Shown here: positions 277 through 14,864 of the stretch, piece by piece | Layout of the letters: each line of letters opens with the position of its first letter | How positions within the stretch are numbered: position 1 is the first letter of the stretch | Virus record (IMG/VR): IMGVR_UViG_3300024999_000066 | Location: 25,920-89,919 of that record | Length of the DNA stretch: 64,000 nucleotides | Direction: 5' to 3' (one strand) | Source: a virus | The notes under the pieces: generated by a model | What the model saw: only the letters and a program-made list of their open reading frames with translations | What the model was told of the DNA's origin: nothing | Databases searched by the model: none | Translations under genes and position numbers: made by a program

Positions 277-305
277 TTGACAACGTTATATTATTACTTT
301 AATAT
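277..305 (+). promoter_or_regulatory. sigma70-like promoter for the tRNA/ncRNA island
   Basis: TTGACA 277-282, 17 nt, TAATAT 300-305. Confidence 0.55.
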
Positions 306-342: not shown

Positions 343-417
343 GCGGATATAACTCAGAGGCAGAGTGTCAGCCTTCCAAGCTGTTCGTCGGGATTTCGAA
401 ATTCCCTATCCGCTCCA
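343..417 (+). tRNA. tRNA-Gly (anticodon TCC)
   Basis: Acceptor GCGGATA/TATCCGC, anticodon loop CTTCCAA, T-loop TTCGAAA, discriminator T plus encoded CCA. Confidence 0.9.
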
Positions 418-665: not shown

Positions 666-753
666 TGTGTTCTAATAGCTTAATTCAGGTCGCTCCTGAT
701 TGGAAGAGCAAGCATATGAGGCTAGTGTAAGTTCGAATCTTACTTAGTTCACA
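666..753 (+). ncRNA. degenerate tRNA-like element with a hairpin inserted in the D-loop
   Basis: Perfect T-arm GTAAG-TTCGAAT-CTTAC, D-stem GCTT/GAGC, mismatched acceptor stem, no CCA. Confidence 0.55.
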
Positions 754-786: not shown

Positions 787-1203
787 ATGGCTGGTCCAAC
801 TAAAGACAAGCAAACAGCAGCACAGAAAGCTCATCGTTTTGATGGCGAGAAAAGCAATCGTAACACTAAGGGCAATTCCAAGGTTCGTATCAATAAATCA
901 AAATTGCGTGTTCTTGCAGAGAAGCTGCTTGAGCGTCAAGATATTGCATTAGAGTTGGTCGATAAGAGTCTTGCCGGAAAAGAAACTAATCCAGAAAGTA
1001 CTGCCAGTGCTAAATGGGTGCTCAACTCAATCGTCAGTGTGATCAAAGCAGCCTCTGCTGAAGAGCTTGGATCGTTCAATGCTCGTCTCAAAGGTAAGCG
1101 TGATGATGAACCTGAAGAACAAACTCCTGCGGAAATCAGCAAAGAATTGAAGCCACGTCTTAGTCTGGTCTACGTTGACCCAGAGGACCAAGACGACGAA
1201 TGA
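787..1203 (+). CDS. hypothetical protein, possible terminase small subunit
   Basis: 138 aa, basic N-terminus (RFDGEKSNRNTKG), helical core, acidic tail, upstream of terL; TerS call is inference. Confidence 0.45.
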   Translation: MAGPTKDKQTAAQKAHRFDGEKSNRNTKGNSKVRINKSKLRVLAEKLLERQDIALELVDKSLAGKETNPESTASAKWVLNSIVSVIKAASAEELGSFNARLKGKRDDEPEEQTPAEISKELKPRLSLVYVDPEDQDDE

Positions 1204-1323
1204 TGTAACCCATAAGTCACATATACTAAACATTATCTTCTAAATGTTATATTTAGTGGACAATATATGGGAATTATACTAGATTATTTGAATTACTATA
1301 ATCGGTCTATAGTCGTCTATAAT

Positions 1324-1339
1324 TATATATATATATATA
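1324..1339. repeat. (TA)8 run at the end of an AT-rich tract
   Basis: tatatatatatatata read directly. Confidence 0.8.
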
Positions 1340-1790
1340 AAAGAATTTACAGGGCACAGCGGAGAATCTAAGACGCTGATCCGGCAAGATTGGAAGGCTT
1401 GTTCCTTTGTTAAGCTGACGAAGGATAACGGTGCATAATTCCCAGTGGGCATGTTGGTATGGAATGACCTTAAAATGGTCTGAGTTGGTTCGACTCCAAC
1501 CCCCTTGGGTGAAGATGAAGTGAGTACATCCCCTGTAAACCTAACTAAGCTTCGGCCTAGTATCTTCAAGTAAGTCCTAGTTCCTTGAAGAAAGCTTACT
1601 AAACCAACTAGTAAGTGTAATACCATTTCATGAAGAACAATACTTTCAACGTTTGTTGAAACCTTAGTGGATGGTGAAATGTCTACCCGAAAGGGCGTGG
1701 AGAGACTGAGTAAATCTTGTGCTCAGAGAGTTGTCAGGTCAGGTTAAGATTGTGGACGCTGACACAAGTATTTTATAAACCATATTAGAA
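1340..1790 (+). ncRNA. large highly structured ncRNA (ROOL/GOLLD-like candidate) with embedded tRNA-like module
   Basis: More than 12 stems, long-range 1346-1354/1531-1539 pairing, UUCG and GAAA tetraloops, T-arm at 1484-1500, no credible + strand ORF. Confidence 0.7.
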
Positions 1791-3296: not shown

Positions 3297-4262
3297 TTGA
3301 ATTACCAGAAAATTTATAATGCTTTAGTTGAGAAAGCTAAAGTACGAGGTCTTGATAAAAAGAAACACGATGGTTACTTTGAAATTCATCATATCCTTCC
3401 AAAGTGTTTGGGCGGTAGTGACGACAAAGAAAACTTGGTAATGTTTACTGCAAGAGAGCATTATGTCTCTCACCTACTCCTCTGGAAAATGAATCCCGGA
3501 CACGTTGGTCTGTTTACTGCTGCTTTCTTTATGAGTAAGAAGAGATTATTTAAGTTTAGCTCAAAACTTTACGAAGTTTTAAAGTTAGAGCAAGCCAAAC
3601 AACTAGCTGAATTCAACTCTACGAACTCTGGGTTTAATAGTCCTGTATTTAAAGATTTGACTGGTGAGGTTAGGGGTAGGCTAACTGTAGTATCTTTTGA
3701 AGATTGGATTTTTCAGAAAAGTGGTACTAGAACATCTACTTGGAATTGTCTTTGTGATTGTGGAAACTCCTTAACATTAGCGGCAAAATTTCTAACTAAA
3801 AAGAGTGGAACACGCTCCTGCGGCTGCGCTCGAGTGGAAAAGATGAAAGCTCATACCGGCGAAAATAATCCATTTTACGGCAAGAAACACTCACCTGAAA
3901 CTCTTGAAATACTAAGAGAAAAGGGTAAAGGGAAAGGTGGTTGGAATAAAGGTTTAGTTCGCACTGAAGAGCATAAACGTAAAGTTTCAGAAGGTTTGAA
4001 AGCAAGAAACCGCCCCGCATGGGAAGCTGGAACAGTCATGAATAAAGATGAGCAACTAACTAAATGGTTGATGGCTGACTATTATTACGAATTATATCTT
4101 ACTAATACCACACTAACTTCTGCAAAGTTCACCACTCTGTATAATCGGCTACATAACGATAATTTGCCAGCAAGAGCTTTTACTGCAATGCACAGAGAAT
4201 TTGTTAAAGGTTGGATTCCTTTAGAAGATGAGAGGTGGGTGAAGTTTTCTAAGGGATTCTAA
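3297..4262 (+). CDS. free-standing HNH homing endonuclease (MobE-like N-terminus, Zn-ribbon, NUMOD3)
   Basis: EIHHILPKCLGG..NLV.FTAREHYVSH; WNCLCDCG..SCGC; GENNPFYGKKHS. Confidence 0.85.
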   Translation: MNYQKIYNALVEKAKVRGLDKKKHDGYFEIHHILPKCLGGSDDKENLVMFTAREHYVSHLLLWKMNPGHVGLFTAAFFMSKKRLFKFSSKLYEVLKLEQAKQLAEFNSTNSGFNSPVFKDLTGEVRGRLTVVSFEDWIFQKSGTRTSTWNCLCDCGNSLTLAAKFLTKKSGTRSCGCARVEKMKAHTGENNPFYGKKHSPETLEILREKGKGKGGWNKGLVRTEEHKRKVSEGLKARNRPAWEAGTVMNKDEQLTKWLMADYYYELYLTNTTLTSAKFTTLYNRLHNDNLPARAFTAMHREFVKGWIPLEDERWVKFSKGF

Positions 4263-5968
4263 ATGACAGAACAAAAGAAACTTCCGGGGCCGTGTTCATT
4301 ACGTCAAAGTATGTATATCGCCTCGGAGGCTGACGTAACCTTATTTGGTGGCGCAGCCGCGAGCGGAAAAAGTGAAATCGGCGTTATTGACTTCCTGAAG
4401 TATACAGACATTCCCAATTTCATTGGTGTAATGACACGTCGCACAACACCCCAGCTTAATGGTCCGGGTGGGTTGCTAACTAAATGTAAGCGTGTATTTA
4501 GTCAAGCATATAAACCAGATGAATATACTTGGCGAGCAAAAGATGGTAAGTTCGTGTTCCATGCCAGTGGTGCTGAAATTTATCTCAAGCACTTTGAGAA
4601 TGATGCAGCAGATGTGAACTGGCAAGGTTCTGAAGCGAATCTTTTCTATATCGATGAGGGAACCCAATATACGATGTATATGATACAATATATCATGTCT
4701 CGTATGCGTAATCCTTCATGCCCGTCAATCAAACCTCACCTCAAAATCACCTGCAATCCAGATGCCGATCACGGCCTCAGAAAGTGGGTAGAGCCCTACT
4801 TGCAAGAAGATGGTACTCCTGACCGTTCAAAAGACGGGATGTTGAGATACTTTTCTTTCATGGATGGTGACTTTGTTTGGGCTGACACTAAAGAACAACT
4901 CCTAGCTGAATACGGTGTAAGAGAGCAAGATGCTCTGTCTTTTACCTTTATTAGTGCTAACGTTTATGACAACAAAATTGTAGAAGAAGTTAACCCTAAG
5001 TATGTTGCTTGGCTTAAAGGTCTTCGCGGAACTGAACGTAAACGGCTCCTAGAAGGGAATTGGTTCGTTCGCGAAAGTGCAGCAGGATTCATGAAAAAAG
5101 AATTCTGTAGTAAGGTTAATTTGTTTGATAAAGAGATTGTGTCTTATTGTCGTGCGTGGGATATAGCAGGTTCGATTCCATCGGAAGCACTACCAAATCC
5201 CGACTGGACTGCTGGTGTTCTTATTGCTAAGACAAAACAAGGCAGATATATAGTAGTTGATGTAGTTAGATTTCGTGCAAGGTTTGGCGAAGTTATGGCT
5301 AAGATTATTGAAACTGCCAAGTCTGACCCTGAAGGCACACAAATCATTATCCCACAAGAACCCGGACAAGCTGGTAAAGCCGCTGGGCAGATGATGATTA
5401 AAGAACTTCTATCTGATGGATTTTACGCAAGAATGCGTCCATCTAATAAGTCCAAGATAATCAGGTTTCAGCCCTTCGCAGCAGCAGCAGAAGCTGGTCT
5501 TGTTGACTACGTTGAGGCTGATTGGAATGATACATATTTCGACGAGTTGGAAAGTTTTGACGGAAGTCGTAAGAATAAAGACGATTTATTAATCTTGGTC
5601 GTCTATAAACCCATTGAATTCGGTGGACCTCTCGTAAGAGACAATACCGAGCGAAGCCTAGTGATAGGAACGTGTAACGACTATCGAAAGCGCACAGTAA
5701 TGTGGAAGTGAGTAGAGTAGGGTCAAGTGACCCGAAGCGGTGGGCAAACAAAACTGTTTGAAGATATAGTCTCCTCTGTACAGTGATGTGCAGCAGTCGT
5801 ATACGACTGGATAAGATATAACGAATCTTATTTAAGATGATGCAAGTTGATGCTACAAGCGATTCTTTCATAACTTTAGCTCAAAGACAAGTTATTCCAA
5901 ACTTCTCATCCGGCCTACTCTCCGCAAATTTAACTCAATCTAACCCCTTCCTTAATGCAGGAGCTTAA
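4263..5968 (+). CDS. terL: terminase large subunit, spliced join(4263..5585,5843..5968), 482 aa
   Basis: Walker A GGAAASGKS, Walker B FYIDE, TCNP, RAWD; splicing restores the nuclease motif KDD-QVDATSDSF and puts the stop directly before the portal ATG. Confidence 0.93.
5586..5842 (+). mobile_element. self-splicing group I intron (IA-type), 257 nt, no ORF
   Basis: P1 GACGAU/GGUCGUC with U-G at the splice site; P GAAUUCGGUGGA, Q AAUACCGAGC, R AACGACUAUC, S AAGAUAUAGUC; terminal G; P10 CUUG/CAAG. Confidence 0.92.
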
Positions 5969-13935: not shown

Positions 13936-14001
13936 TTGCATTAAAACCCCTTACGTGATAAATTATATATTCGTTGATTTATTTTGGAGGGGTTTTAATG
14001 C
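13936..14001 (+). promoter_or_regulatory. promoter overlapping an RBS-sequestering hairpin for the GIY-YIG gene
   Basis: TTGCAT-17-TAAATT; 13938-13952 pairs with 13987-14001, covering the RBS and ATG. Confidence 0.7.
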
Positions 14002-14864
14002 GTAAGTTTTATCTGTACAAGATTACCAATAAGGTAAACCAAAAGATTTACATTGGTATGACATGCCGGCCAGAAACTAGATTTAAAGAGCACTGTAGCC
14101 AACACTCAACATGCACAAAACTTCGAAACTCTATTCAAAAACATGGAGTTGTTAATTTTCAATACGAAGTTTTGTGCATTGGCTCAGAGAAATATATTCT
14201 AGATCTAGAAGAAAAAGCAATTATTGCATATAATTCTATTACTGATGGATATAACTTAGTTCTAGGTAACCCTAAGACTGGCGCCATACTTTTATCTGAG
14301 GAAATGAAAGCAAAAATCTCAGTAGGGTTAAATAAGTATCACGCAGAGAATATTGCTTGGAATAGCGGGATCATTATTGGCCGAAGAAAAGAATATGATC
14401 CGCACTATGTTTCTGGCTTCTGGTTCCCACACTTGGAAGATGCTTGTTTTTCTTTAAATTTGAATATTACTCAACTACATAAATGGCGAAGAGATGGAAC
14501 TCTTGGAGATGTACAACGTCTCCGTAAAGATTCTGTCCAAGTGCCTTGCTATGTTGCGGGATTCTGGTTTGATACCTTAACCAGAGCTTCTCATGTACTA
14601 GATAAGAAACCTTCTACGCTTAATAAAAGAATCAGGGAAGGTTCTGTTGAACAAAAAGAAAAACAGAAAGGTCAAGTTGGAGAAGACGCCCATATGTTCG
14701 GAAGAACAGGTTCTGCCCATCCAAGATCTAAGTCTGTAGAAATTAATGGTGTTGTCTATGGCTCTATTTTAGAGGCAGCTAGAAATACTGAATTTACTAA
14801 GAAGATGATTAATACCCGTCTTAAGAATAATACACCCGGTTTTAGCTGGGCAACACAGGAATAA
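13998..14864 (+). CDS. free-standing GIY-YIG homing endonuclease
   Basis: YLYKITN..KIYIG..RFKEH..GYN; repeated C-terminal DNA-binding modules; ATG at 13998 after GGAGG. Confidence 0.88.
   Translation: MRKFYLYKITNKVNQKIYIGMTCRPETRFKEHCSQHSTCTKLRNSIQKHGVVNFQYEVLCIGSEKYILDLEEKAIIAYNSITDGYNLVLGNPKTGAILLSEEMKAKISVGLNKYHAENIAWNSGIIIGRRKEYDPHYVSGFWFPHLEDACFSLNLNITQLHKWRRDGTLGDVQRLRKDSVQVPCYVAGFWFDTLTRASHVLDKKPSTLNKRIREGSVEQKEKQKGQVGEDAHMFGRTGSAHPRSKSVEINGVVYGSILEAARNTEFTKKMINTRLKNNTPGFSWATQE

Follow-up and report, generated by a model that had tools for sequence, protein, structure and literature searches.

The window analysed here, a 64,000-nt stretch of DNA from an uncultured virus, encodes a tail sheath and a baseplate wedge, which bears out its description as a myovirus in an earlier note made from the letters alone. 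The gammaproteobacterial affiliation given there is only suggested by our comparisons, in which the capsid comes closest to that of a Pseudomonas phage, at 40.6%, and the tRNA-Gly gene at 343-417 is 97.5% identical to tRNA-Gly of Pseudomonas phages. A strong promoter at 277-305 is followed by this tRNA and tRNA-like genes and then by a gene for a 138-aa protein. Behind that gene lies a stretch of about 450 nt which the earlier note took for an ornate, ORF-free non-coding RNA of the ROOL/GOLLD kind or of a new class (Table 1). The next gene begins 60 nt past the tail of the RNA, with no good promoter between, and the genes for the large terminase subunit (4263) and the portal (5969) lie farther on.

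Table 1. Features of the RNA locus, in window coordinates; paired segments are separated by a slash
Feature	Position	Strand	Remarks
138-aa gene	787-1203	+	precedes the RNA in all relatives
Long AU-rich hairpin	1214-1254	+	just past the stop codon; spacer, not conserved RNA
Spacer with CTATAAT-type repeats and TA run	1292-1339	+	resembles repeated GTCTATAAT units of L046
Leader AAAGAAU	1340-1346	+	conserved 5' boundary; opens nearly all members
Domain 1	1346-1539	+	lineage-specific expansion domain in slot; closed by UUUACAGGG (1346-1354) / CCCUGUAAA (1531-1539)
tRNA-like unit	1441-1509	+	inside domain 1
P1	1544-1561: 1544-1550/1555-1561	+	UUCG loop, one A-C mismatch
P2	1564-1590: 1564-1570/1584-1590	+	loop with family-invariant CUAG (1577-1580)
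P3	1595-1615: 1595-1601/1609-1615	+	loop AACCAAC; family loop UCUGGCGG
P4 region	1624-1696	+	insert, then P4 proper
P4 insert	1624-1630/1675-1681; inner hairpin 1644-1650/1655-1661	+	common to L189 and L179
P4 proper, CCC GAAA GGG	1686-1695	+	
Linker J4/5, GUGGAGAG	1697-1704	+	conserved
P5	1706-1726: 1706-1712/1720-1726	+	loop AAUCUUG
P6	1732-1764: outer 1732-1737/1759-1764, inner 1738-1740/1755-1757	+	conserved loop type RGGNAR..GUG
A/U-rich tail, ACAAGUAUUUUAUA	1765-1777	+	conserved 3' boundary

Positions 1340-1777 are one member of a family of structured non-coding RNAs, read from the plus strand, that has no entry in Rfam 15. A covariance model built from eight relatives, with the window left out (R1), matches window positions 1538-1777 at 57.2 bits (E 1.8e-11), and all of the window's pairs are standard save for one A-C pair in P1. 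The window also has the covarying helices P1, P3, P5 and P6 of the family and the position behind the 138-aa gene. We collected at least 40 matches to R1, at least 35 of them distinct sequences, from uncultured myoviruses of ~80-92 kb, with one copy of the RNA in each of five complete genomes. The earlier note had proposed to look for Rfam families, for covariation among homologues and for stability against shuffled controls. An Rfam 15 scan found no family over the RNA at the gathering score, and a cmscan of positions 1-2000 against the 4227 Rfam families at E ≤ 10 found none over 1538-1790. We are confident that this is a real conserved RNA family, and neither ROOL nor GOLLD.

The covariation is strong. 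In alignment A6, which includes the window, 98.9% of cells are paired, compared with 74.5% in shuffles, and none of 500 shuffles does as well; compensatory changes occur in 22 of the 30 pairs. P6 and the inner part of P5 lie outside the search model. Alignment A3 gives a similar picture, with 97.2% of cells paired against 70.3% in shuffles (0/500 reach it), compensatory changes in 14 of 18 pairs, and slid controls that are 31-44% paired. Among 369 cells, 41 are G-U and 2 are A-C, which fixes the plus strand and agrees with the strand originally read from the G-U pairs. Fold energy alone exceeds chance only modestly. For 1340-1790 the z-score is -1.71 on the plus strand, where 5 of 100 shuffles reach the same stability, and it is -1.54 on the minus strand; that of 1340-1545 is -2.10 (5/200), and that of 1538-1777 is -1.62 (14/200).

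The conserved unit, 1538-1777 in the window, is a row of six hairpins and not an ornate fold of ~450 nt with several domains; the remainder of the ~450 nt is a lineage-specific insert. The core runs P1, GGUAUC, P2, P3, a variable P4 region, GUGGAGA, P5, AGAG, P6 and the A/U-rich tail, with conserved purine-rich linkers joining the hairpins. Its length in full-core members is 147-241 nt, and these members preserve both the succession P1-P2-P3...P5-P6 and the sequences of the linkers. P1 (helix 1) is 96.7-97.4% paired, with compensatory changes in 3-4 of its 7 pairs, and the family's P3 (helix 2) is 98.7% paired, the window's own P3 lying in the same place yet unaligned to the model columns. In A6, P5 (helices 3 and 4) is 100% paired with compensatory changes in 7/7 pairs, and P6 (helix 5) is 99.2% paired with such changes in 7/9. 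Each of the 35 distinct members can form the P2 hairpin around CUAG, on very different stems. The P4 region takes at least four forms across members: hairpins with GAAAGA, GYAAG, GAAUAG or GAAA loops occur in 21/35 and the specific form UGAC-stem-GAAAGA-stem in 9/35, while the window has the canonical UGAC/GAAAGA hairpin nowhere and carries GAAA as its P4 loop. The linker G(U/C)GG(A/U)GA is present in every member that has the 3' module. At the 3' end, a terminator consensus scan found no terminator at P6 and the tail of the window, and a terminator-like hairpin follows the tail in L042. The conserved loops CUAG, UGGC and RGG..GUG suggest a shared higher-order function.

All of the stems listed in the earlier note were found in place, most of them in the minimum-free-energy fold, and comparison with relatives supports those of its second domain. 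C(UUCG)G, CTTACTA/TAGTAAG, CTGAGTA/TGCTCAG and TGTCAG/CTGACA are P1, P3, P5 and P6 and covary in relatives; CTTCAAG/CTTGAAG (P2) and CCC(GAAA)GGG (P4) fold in relatives from quite different stem sequences; and TTTCAAC/GTTGAAA recurs in L189 and L179. Other proposed pairings were not borne out. GTCT/AGAC would engage the conserved linker GUGGAGA, and no relative has an equivalent. The AATCTT/AAGATT pseudoknot, between the loops of P5 and P6, is confined to P6 with a UUAAGAUU insert: it occurs only in the window, L046 and L202 (one mismatch), six other A6 members have the loop AAUCUUG without AAGAUU, and there is no covariation elsewhere. The segments that the earlier note likened to ROOL map to P2, to the P4 insert and to the region of P4 and J4/5, and the ROOL model lends them no support. 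Three further pairings were tried and rejected. A closing helix between leader and 3' tail had a cognate mean of -2.98 kcal/mol against -2.66 for non-cognate combinations (permutation p 0.13, in a duplex test in which the wrong leader was taken for the window and L189), and by eye neither GGU/ACC around P2 nor the conserved CCC with GGG of the P6 loop covaries.

Members also vary in a slot that separates the leader AAAGAAU from the linker AAMCUAAC. The slot is empty in many members and holds mutually unrelated, stem-closed inserts in others; in 12 of the 15 slot-bearing members the closing stems differ in sequence and agree in place. In the window the slot is filled by domain 1, for which (1346-1537) no homologue was found in any fetched locus, so that the proposed AATCT/AGATT pseudoknot and all the inner stems lack comparative support; of the domain as originally drawn, the closing stem stands, with analogues in relatives. 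The tRNA-like module described within it does have a canonical T-arm (GUUGG UUCGACU CCAAC), an anticodon-like 7-nt loop (UUAAAAU) and a short D-arm, with no CCA, and it stays below tRNA thresholds. ARAGORN called tRNA-Gly alone in the window and left 1441-1509 uncalled, the best Rfam match of the unit is tRNA-Sec at 17.1 bits (E 4.6; cut-off 47), and comparison with 124 phage tRNAs returned generic T-arm similarity only. In canonical members we also observed complementarity between the loops of P2, GCC(U)AG, and P3, CUGGC. The window's P3 loop, AACCAAC, has its complement in GUUGGUU (1484-1490) of the T-arm. A self-contained RNA could make such pairings within or between molecules.

A tRNA-Met(CAU) takes the place of the 3' module in 4 of 35 members (L055, L185, L204 and L184), L197 carries a tandem duplication of gene end, leader and slot insert, a clean deletion in L045 and L047 reaches from the leader to the next hairpin, and intergenic regions have mosaic blocks in common.

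As far as we searched, the family is limited to one clade, made up of uncultured myoviruses of ~80-92 kb. When viral contigs were scanned with loose patterns, the matches listed were mostly due to chance, and filtering these with R1 added L004/L060, L071, L079, L090, L098 and L167. A second pattern scan with an nhmmer filter yielded no new members among the matches listed, and a 25-base pattern search matched the L189 contig only. In a search for the RNA beside more distant relatives of the protein, the single-protein queries P0010 and P0030 found no locus, and neither the window RNA nor two short-form relatives had DNA similarity to GenBank phages. We call the family uncatalogued as judged by Rfam 15 and a literature search; 8,495 candidate structured RNAs have been reported from IMG/VR (PMC10690425), and the family may be among these.

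The constant companion of the RNA is the 138-aa gene. The RNA lies 3' of it in all 34 matches listed, with an extra small ORF in between in L185, L199, L056 and L203. Because the genes downstream of the RNA vary among loci, and because even in the closest relatives by downstream gene the RNA is 1.8 kb away and again behind a 138-aa homologue, we conclude that the RNA is tied to its upstream rather than its downstream neighbour. In most members (e.g. L004, L049, L050, L040, L176, L179 and L039) the stop codon of the 138-aa gene, or of the ORF that comes just before the RNA, overlaps the leader UAAAGAAU, which leaves no room for a promoter. The window differs here: 135 nt with TATAAT-like repeats separate stop codon and leader, so that this copy may have its own promoter and not be a trailer, while most relatives are without such a CTATAAT-type spacer. 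The hairpin in the spacer is 80% identical to L195 1876-1916, and similar spacer hairpins were seen by eye in L038, L042, L051, L183 and L198. Promoters of TTGACA-N17/18-TATAGT type, which we take to mark where the transcription unit ends, lie ~40 nt past the tail in L040, L041 and L050 and also at 2753-2782 of the window, and tRNA genes lie upstream of the RNA in the window, L186, L189, L202 and L203.

The protein itself is basic at the N-terminus, helical in its middle part and acidic at the C-terminus. In an AF2 model (mean pLDDT 67.4) residues 39-102 are helical and the basic N-terminus is predicted to be disordered. Homologues occur in 19 viral and 29 metagenome loci. The window protein had no family in Pfam, PHROG or NCBIfam and no solved relative, tblastn found it neither in GenBank phages nor in 185,579 species genomes, and a DUF5681 match appears in 11 of 49 distant relatives. 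In PMC8954984, the only paper found that names DUF5681, such a protein is simply listed in a virion proteome. In three complete genomes (G010, G011 and G012) the 138-aa gene is kept and the RNA is absent, with the gene order unchanged, which makes an obligatory partnership of protein and RNA unlikely.

Based upon this arrangement, we infer, tentatively, that the RNA is a stable trailer processed from a transcript shared with the 138-aa gene. The RNA would be transcribed from the promoter at 277-305, and the message would be cut at the leader, GA/AUU, which we take to resemble an RNase E site. The 5' end could then be buried in P1 or in the closing stem of the slot and the 3' end shielded by P6, so that the freed RNA might persist, and protein or RNA might contact its conserved loops and purine-rich linkers. 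The 138-aa protein would be an obvious candidate partner, and the tRNA-like insert and the replacing tRNA-Met may be handles for processing by host tRNA enzymes, or stabilisers. It is also conceivable, and in our judgement improbable, that the core is no trailer and works as a self-contained RNA machine, with specific contacts made by its near-invariant loops, together with the DUF5681-related 138-aa protein, as a new phage ribonucleoprotein whose plug-in slot for tRNA mimics engages the host's tRNA or translation enzymes, or defences that target tRNA.

Alternatively, the RNA could act in cis on transcription where the tRNA/early unit gives way to the packaging and structural genes, either as a nut- or put-like RNA for processive antitermination working with an N-like 138-aa protein or as an attenuator in which P6 and the U-rich tail form a conditional terminator. 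The location between the upstream unit and the structural genes would suit such an element, as would the window's promoterless 60 nt before the next gene and the terminator-like hairpin of L042; yet the downstream genes are not conserved, those that follow in L040, L041 and L050 have a sigma-70-type promoter of their own, and the gene order is the same in genomes without the RNA. The UGAC-stem-GAAAGA-stem form of P4 in nine members and the basic, predicted-disordered N-terminus of the protein would fit antitermination too, but the window's P4 is of the GAAA type and no boxA-like linear element was seen, and nut and put sites need far fewer than six covarying hairpins. On balance we regard control in cis as unlikely. 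We hold in similar doubt the idea that the locus is a row of independent small tRNA-island modules such as leader hairpins, boundary hairpins and decayed tRNAs, each a local processing or protection signal, shuffled by recombination at shared boundary sequences. Unrelated slot contents, the several forms of P4, the tRNA-Met replacements, and the duplication, deletions and mosaic blocks are all what shuffling would leave behind. However, full-core members keep the order of the hairpins and their linkers, each complete carrier genome has a single copy, the closing stems insulate inserts in the manner of expansion segments of one folded RNA, and the conserved loops suggest a common higher-order function.

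Three other explanations have much less in their favour. The neighbourhood of terminase and portal, the complementary loops of P2 and P3 and of P3 and the T-arm, and a protein layout (basic N-terminus, long helix, acidic tail) that to us resembles a small terminase subunit would all be compatible with a packaging-associated RNA like phi29 pRNA, a loop-loop oligomer acting with terminase or portal. We consider this very unlikely, since the RNA is missing from three complete genomes of the clade and so is not an essential packaging part, a tRNA replaces its 3' half in four members, no Rfam family matches 1538-1790 at E ≤ 10, and the candidate loop pairs are invariant and hence outside the covariation test. 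Even smaller is the chance of a divergent ROOL or GOLLD RNA, as the earlier note had suggested from a phage-borne RNA beside tRNA genes with an embedded tRNA-like element; its alternative of a new class agrees with our Rfam 15 results. At E ≤ 10 the ROOL model (RF03087, gathering score 99.1 bits) found nothing anywhere in the phage's genome; the control genomes were equally without a match, which makes this one search weak by itself, but ROOL was absent also from the full Rfam scans (at the gathering score, and at E ≤ 10 on 1-2000). GOLLD (RF02032, 150 bits) likewise had none at E ≤ 10 in the phage's own genome, whereas its control was matched in 5 of 14 genomes; neither RNA was found in 14 homologous loci, and a serial row of hairpins is not a multidomain model of 400-600 positions. 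In the same way we set aside bacterial RNase P RNA, short motifs in the RNA being reminiscent, as we see it, of M1 RNA: RF00010 gave no match at E ≤ 10 in the phage's own genome and its control was matched in 11 of 14 genomes. That domain 1 is instead part of a protein gene on the minus strand is just as hard to credit. The stretch is not strictly ORF-free, given an ATG-initiated, 115-aa minus-strand ORF at 1279-1626, but the product it would encode is of low complexity, is rich in isoleucine and tyrosine at one end and matches no PHROG at E ≤ 1; the ORF enters P1-P3, which are conserved as plus-strand RNA in relatives without the ORF, and it is opposite in orientation to every neighbouring gene.

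Phage tRNA regions are rich in unexplained structured RNAs, and this family accounts for a recurrent "empty" gap of 150-750 nt upstream of the packaging genes in its clade. Several traits make it tractable: a compact and strongly covarying core, a fixed partner gene, one copy per genome and natural deletion variants, together with a defined slot into which evolution plugs folded inserts, tRNA-like ones among them. If processing and stabilisation do occur, the principle of 3'-UTR-derived RNAs would reach lytic phages; if its slot and loops mediate capture of tRNA enzymes or assembly, it would be a natural scaffold displaying RNA modules.

Among known systems, the large RNAs ROOL and GOLLD assemble into RNA-only homo-oligomers (PMC12286853). 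Like them, the present RNA is a phage or prophage structured RNA near tRNA genes. Unlike ROOL (~570 positions) and GOLLD, with multidomain folds of 400-600 nt, it has a far shorter six-hairpin core, and it goes with a single protein gene, behind whose 3' end it lies. GOLLD can embed tRNAs; here there is a tRNA-Gly nearby, and the embedded unit is merely tRNA-like. The T4 RNAs species 1 and 2 are stable non-tRNA RNAs of the tRNA gene cluster, co-transcribed with tRNAs, and in this they are alike as non-tRNA phage RNAs of a tRNA region, a comparison made by description only; we know of no report that either trails a protein gene. Like lambda nut and HK022 put, the RNA lies beside the gene for a small protein, here basic in its N-terminal part and of no named family, between transcription units, but it is far larger, has no boxA that we saw, lies downstream of the protein gene and is dispensable in some genomes of the clade. 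The packaging neighbourhood and the loops that could pair between molecules recall phi29 pRNA, which we take to be an Rfam family; in contrast to it, the core has no Rfam match, the carrier is a myovirus with an ordinary large terminase, and three complete relatives lack the RNA.

Our favoured reading, a processed trailer RNA, finds its counterpart in the 3'-UTR-derived small RNAs of Gammaproteobacteria, such as CpxQ and SroC. As in these, there is in most relatives no space for a promoter ahead of the RNA, which begins at a stop codon or just past it. Its 5' boundary carries an A/U-rich candidate RNase E site, and at its 3' end a hairpin is followed by a U-rich tail. Unlike CpxQ and SroC, whose targets are met by a single-stranded seed, it is phage-encoded, far longer and far more structured, and its processing is one that we infer; in place of the seed it presents conserved loops, along with a modular slot that takes tRNA-like inserts.

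The window forms the final 64 kb of an 89.9-kb IMG/VR virus record, the source of which appears to be a groundwater metagenome. Genes for tail sheath, baseplate wedge, tape measure protein, large terminase subunit, portal and major head protein are present, and the sheath and wedge genes bear out the earlier note's assignment to a myovirus. The closest capsid match is a Pseudomonas phage at 40.6% identity, and no close cultured relative of the phage was found. A group I intron lies within the large terminase gene (5530-5793; RF00028, 75.8 bits, E 1.9e-17), in a region whose DNA is weakly similar (78%) to its counterpart in Pseudomonas PAK_P1-like phages. There are also two free-standing homing endonuclease genes (3297-4262 and 13974-14864; PHROG homing endonuclease families, the latter matching a GIY-YIG-type family); one is next to the large terminase gene, and the tail sheath and tube genes flank the other.

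Features around the RNA in the window
Feature	Position	Strand	Basis
Strong sigma-70-type promoter	277-305	+	
tRNA-Gly	343-417	+	ARAGORN
Structured sequence	between tRNA-Gly and 138-aa ORF	+	
tRNA-like element, sub-threshold	669-751	+	RF00005, 26.4 bits against a cut-off of 29
138-aa ORF	787-1203	+	
Gap with RNA	635 nt, between 138-aa and 280-aa ORFs	+	
280-aa ORF	from 1839	+	

The sub-threshold tRNA-like element stands directly 5' of the 138-aa gene, has a 25-nt insert in its D region and drew no ARAGORN call. Between tRNA-Gly and this element, positions 420-660 are non-coding and hold CU-rich (UCUCC-type) segments; the RNA studied here has conserved GGAG-containing linkers. Clustered at 50%, the family of the 138-aa protein comprises 99 representatives. 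No named family matched the close relatives of the window protein, DUF5681 matched 11 of 49 distant ones, and no relative of the gene occurs in 185,579 prokaryote species (one genome each). Its structure model is helical, with a basic N-terminus of low confidence.

Relatives of the RNA were sought through both flanking genes. The 280-aa gene led to 28 loci, none with DNA similarity to the window gap; the three closest have different genes in its place. Three distant relatives (L007, L008, L009) carry arrays of 15-20 tRNA genes upstream of the 280-aa homologue, occupying the place of the window's one tRNA, tRNA-like elements, 138-aa gene and RNA. The 138-aa gene was the productive route, yielding 19 viral and 29 metagenome loci, nearly all with a gap of 140-740 nt behind the gene, and mosaic blocks are common to these gaps, including the window's. 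Eight short versions were aligned with the window outside the seed, and the alignment showed three covarying helices (RNAalifold). The covariance model built from it, R1, matched window 1538-1777 (57.2 bits, E 1.8e-11) and also the three closest relatives by the 280-aa gene (L003-L005), where the RNA sits about 1.8 kb upstream of the 280-aa homologue, directly behind the 138-aa homologue. Across 54 sources R1 gave 40 matches, representing 35 distinct sequences, and 34 of the 48 loci fetched via the 138-aa gene matched at E <= 0.01. Among loci without a match, the sequence stops at or close to the gene end in L191, L194 and L201, and the contigs of L188 and L190 are those of L045 and L047; a divergent copy in L054 was recognized by eye only.

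Covariation among these homologues confirms the core structure. In the alignment of all 35 distinct members, which was fitted to the model and is thus biased towards helices P1, P3 and P5, these helices are 97.2% paired, compared with 70.3% in column shuffles, and 14 of 18 pairs have both-sided changes; none of 500 shuffles reached the observed values, and slid controls gave 31-44%. For the 14-member subtype that includes the window, pairs beyond the model were added (three in P5, nine in P6). Here pairing is 98.9% against 74.5%, with compensatory changes at 22 of 30 pairs, 0 of 500 shuffles as high and slid controls at 31.6-39.3%; P6 by itself is 99.2% paired, with seven of its nine pairs compensatory. 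Because G-U cells outnumber A-C cells by 41 to 2 among 369, the RNA is read from the + strand, like the flanking genes and as the earlier note had judged from its G-U pairs. The stems listed there are all present in the sequence, the majority also in the predicted fold. Folding z-scores are -2.10 for domain 1 (the slot insert) and -1.62 for domain 2 (the core), and over the whole stretch 1340-1790 they are -1.71 on + and -1.54 on -; thermodynamics by itself is unimpressive.

The family has a fixed module order. A leader, (U)AAAGAAU, is followed by an optional insert in a variable slot, the linker AAMCUAAC and then P1, which has a UUCG-type loop and is absent from nine of the 35 distinct members (L040, L043, L195, L198, L183, L003, L199, L176, L179). 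GGUAUC separates P1 from P2, in which CUAG is always present, either in the loop or in the 3' arm; the stem sequences of P2 are almost all different among members. Of 35 slices, 31 form this hairpin around CUAG, and the remaining four (L040, L198, L176 and the window), from which slicing had removed the 5' arm, form it when sliced differently. The P3 stem carries UCUGGCGG at its tip, which probably makes a UGGC loop with closing pairs C-G and U-G/U-A. The P4 region that follows is variable and contains the linker (G)UAAAUG(A)C; GUGGAGA(A/G)G leads from it to P5, and A(G/C)(A/G)G joins P5 to P6, whose stem has two levels and whose loop is of the RGGNAR..GUG type. The RNA ends in a tail rich in A and U, with AUA last. 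A P4 hairpin is found in 21 of 35 members, the remainder having larger inserts or lacking the P5/P6 end (the 3' module). Its loops are GAAAGA (nine members, as a UGAC-stem-GAAAGA hairpin), GYAAG (seven), GAAUAG (two) and GAAA (three: the window, L189 and L179). In the window the P3 loop reads AACCAAC, not UCUGGCGG, and is perfectly complementary to GUUGGUU, part of the T-arm in the tRNA-like insert of the same RNA. A comparable complementarity between loop and insert is seen in L054, the one further member of the AACCAA type. In canonical members, the P2 segment GCC(U)AG complements CUGGC in P3.

Domain 1 of the window (1346-1537) occupies the slot. No homologue of it occurs in any fetched locus, and two more pattern scans for window-like variants gave none new among the matches listed. 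Of 15 members with an occupied slot, 12 nevertheless have a stem-closed insert, the stem beginning immediately behind AAAGAA, stopping immediately before the linker and differing in sequence each time (UUUACAGGG/CCCUGUAAA in the window, UUUGUCUG/CAGACAAA in L041, UUUGAGG/CCUCAAA in L052, UUUCCAUUG/CAAUGGAAA in L039). The conserved feature is the design of the slot. The insert of L184 is a 313-nt multi-domain element, and those of L005 and L196 look tRNA-like by eye, with no ARAGORN call. In the window's tRNA-like unit (1441-1509) the T-arm is canonical and the anticodon-like loop has 7 nt; the unit falls below the ARAGORN and Rfam tRNA thresholds, and its resemblance to 124 tRNAs from related phages is confined to generic T-arm features. 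A tRNA-Sec-like hit (1441-1508, 17.1 bits) is the only Rfam match at E <= 10 within 1340-1790. The inner stems of domain 1 are predictions only, and so are the two pseudoknots proposed in the earlier note.

The RNA is tied to a single gene, at its 3' end: in all 34 matches listed it lies 3' of the 138-aa gene end. In most members the stop codon falls within UAAAGAAU, and therefore there is no promoter room before the RNA. An extra small ORF intervenes in L185, L199/L056 and L203, its stop in L199/L056 again overlapping the leader. The window is atypical in having a long AU-rich hairpin (1214-1254; GUYACAUAUNCUAAACAUU...AAUGUU...) between stop codon and leader, a hairpin that also lies just past the 138-aa stop in L195 (1876-1916), L038, L042, L051, L183 and L198. 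CTATAAT-type repeats resembling those of L046 follow it and could, from their sequence, be the window copy's own promoter. Right upstream of the leader, (G)TCTATAAT repeats recur at about 11-nt spacing (window 1292-1320, L046 4430-4475), with CCTATAAAGAAT at this position in L044 and L196; these may serve as promoter elements or as repeats for protein binding. Genes downstream of the RNA vary by locus. About 40 nt past the tail, L040, L041 and L050 have a sigma-70-type promoter (TTGACA, 17-18 nt, TATAGT), whose window counterpart (2753-2782) lies beyond the inserted 280-aa gene; in each case a CCUCAAG...GAGGA element follows and the promoter heads the next gene. Several loci have tRNA genes upstream of the 138-aa gene, and L055, L185, L204 and L184 have tRNA-Met(CAU) at the expected position of the 3' module.

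Five of five complete genomes contain exactly one significant copy. The complete genomes G010, G011 and G012 keep the 138-aa gene and lack the RNA, which argues against any essential role. In L045/L047 (4400-4537) the leader AAAGAAU is fused directly to a GGCCG...CGGC hairpin that follows the RNA tail in L042, and whole-genome searches found no copy elsewhere; the arrangement looks like a clean deletion. L197 (1780-1990) carries a twofold tandem repeat of a 138-aa gene 3'-end remnant, leader and slot insert, suggesting recombination at leader/linker sequences.

How might such an RNA work? We tentatively favor a processed, stable trailer RNA, a reading we hold to be plausible and still short of probable. 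The RNA would be co-transcribed with the 138-aa gene and released from the message at the leader, whose GA/AUU resembles the preference of RNase E. Helices would protect both ends, and the stable product may offer its invariant loops (CUAG, UGGC, RGG..GUG) and purine linkers as contact sites. tRNA-processing enzymes may also be involved, since slot inserts and tRNA swaps point there.

A cis-acting termination or antitermination element is a less likely account, and a row of independent processing modules seems to us doubtful to the same degree. A packaging RNA is very improbable. Still more so is a minus-strand gene: a 115-aa ORF overlaps domain 1 on that strand, so that the stretch is not strictly ORF-free as the earlier note had it, but the ORF looks non-coding. 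Membership in ROOL or GOLLD, as first proposed, is just as improbable, for neither model (RF03087, in a search in which the control genomes gave no match either, and RF02032) matched the phage genome at E <= 10; nor did bacterial RNase P RNA (RF00010).

The alternative offered with that proposal, a new class, agrees with Rfam 15, which has no match over 1340-1790 at gathering score. At E <= 1, 14 homologous loci gave tRNA matches only, and similar DNA is absent from GenBank phages. Within the reach of these tools, neither Rfam 15 nor cultured phages contain the family; PMC10690425 lists 8,495 candidate RNAs from IMG/VR, among which it may already appear. Of the roughly 450 nt first proposed, only the 3' 240 nt are conserved. 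What stands is a real structured RNA, smaller and more modular than envisaged, of a new family that is neither ROOL nor GOLLD.
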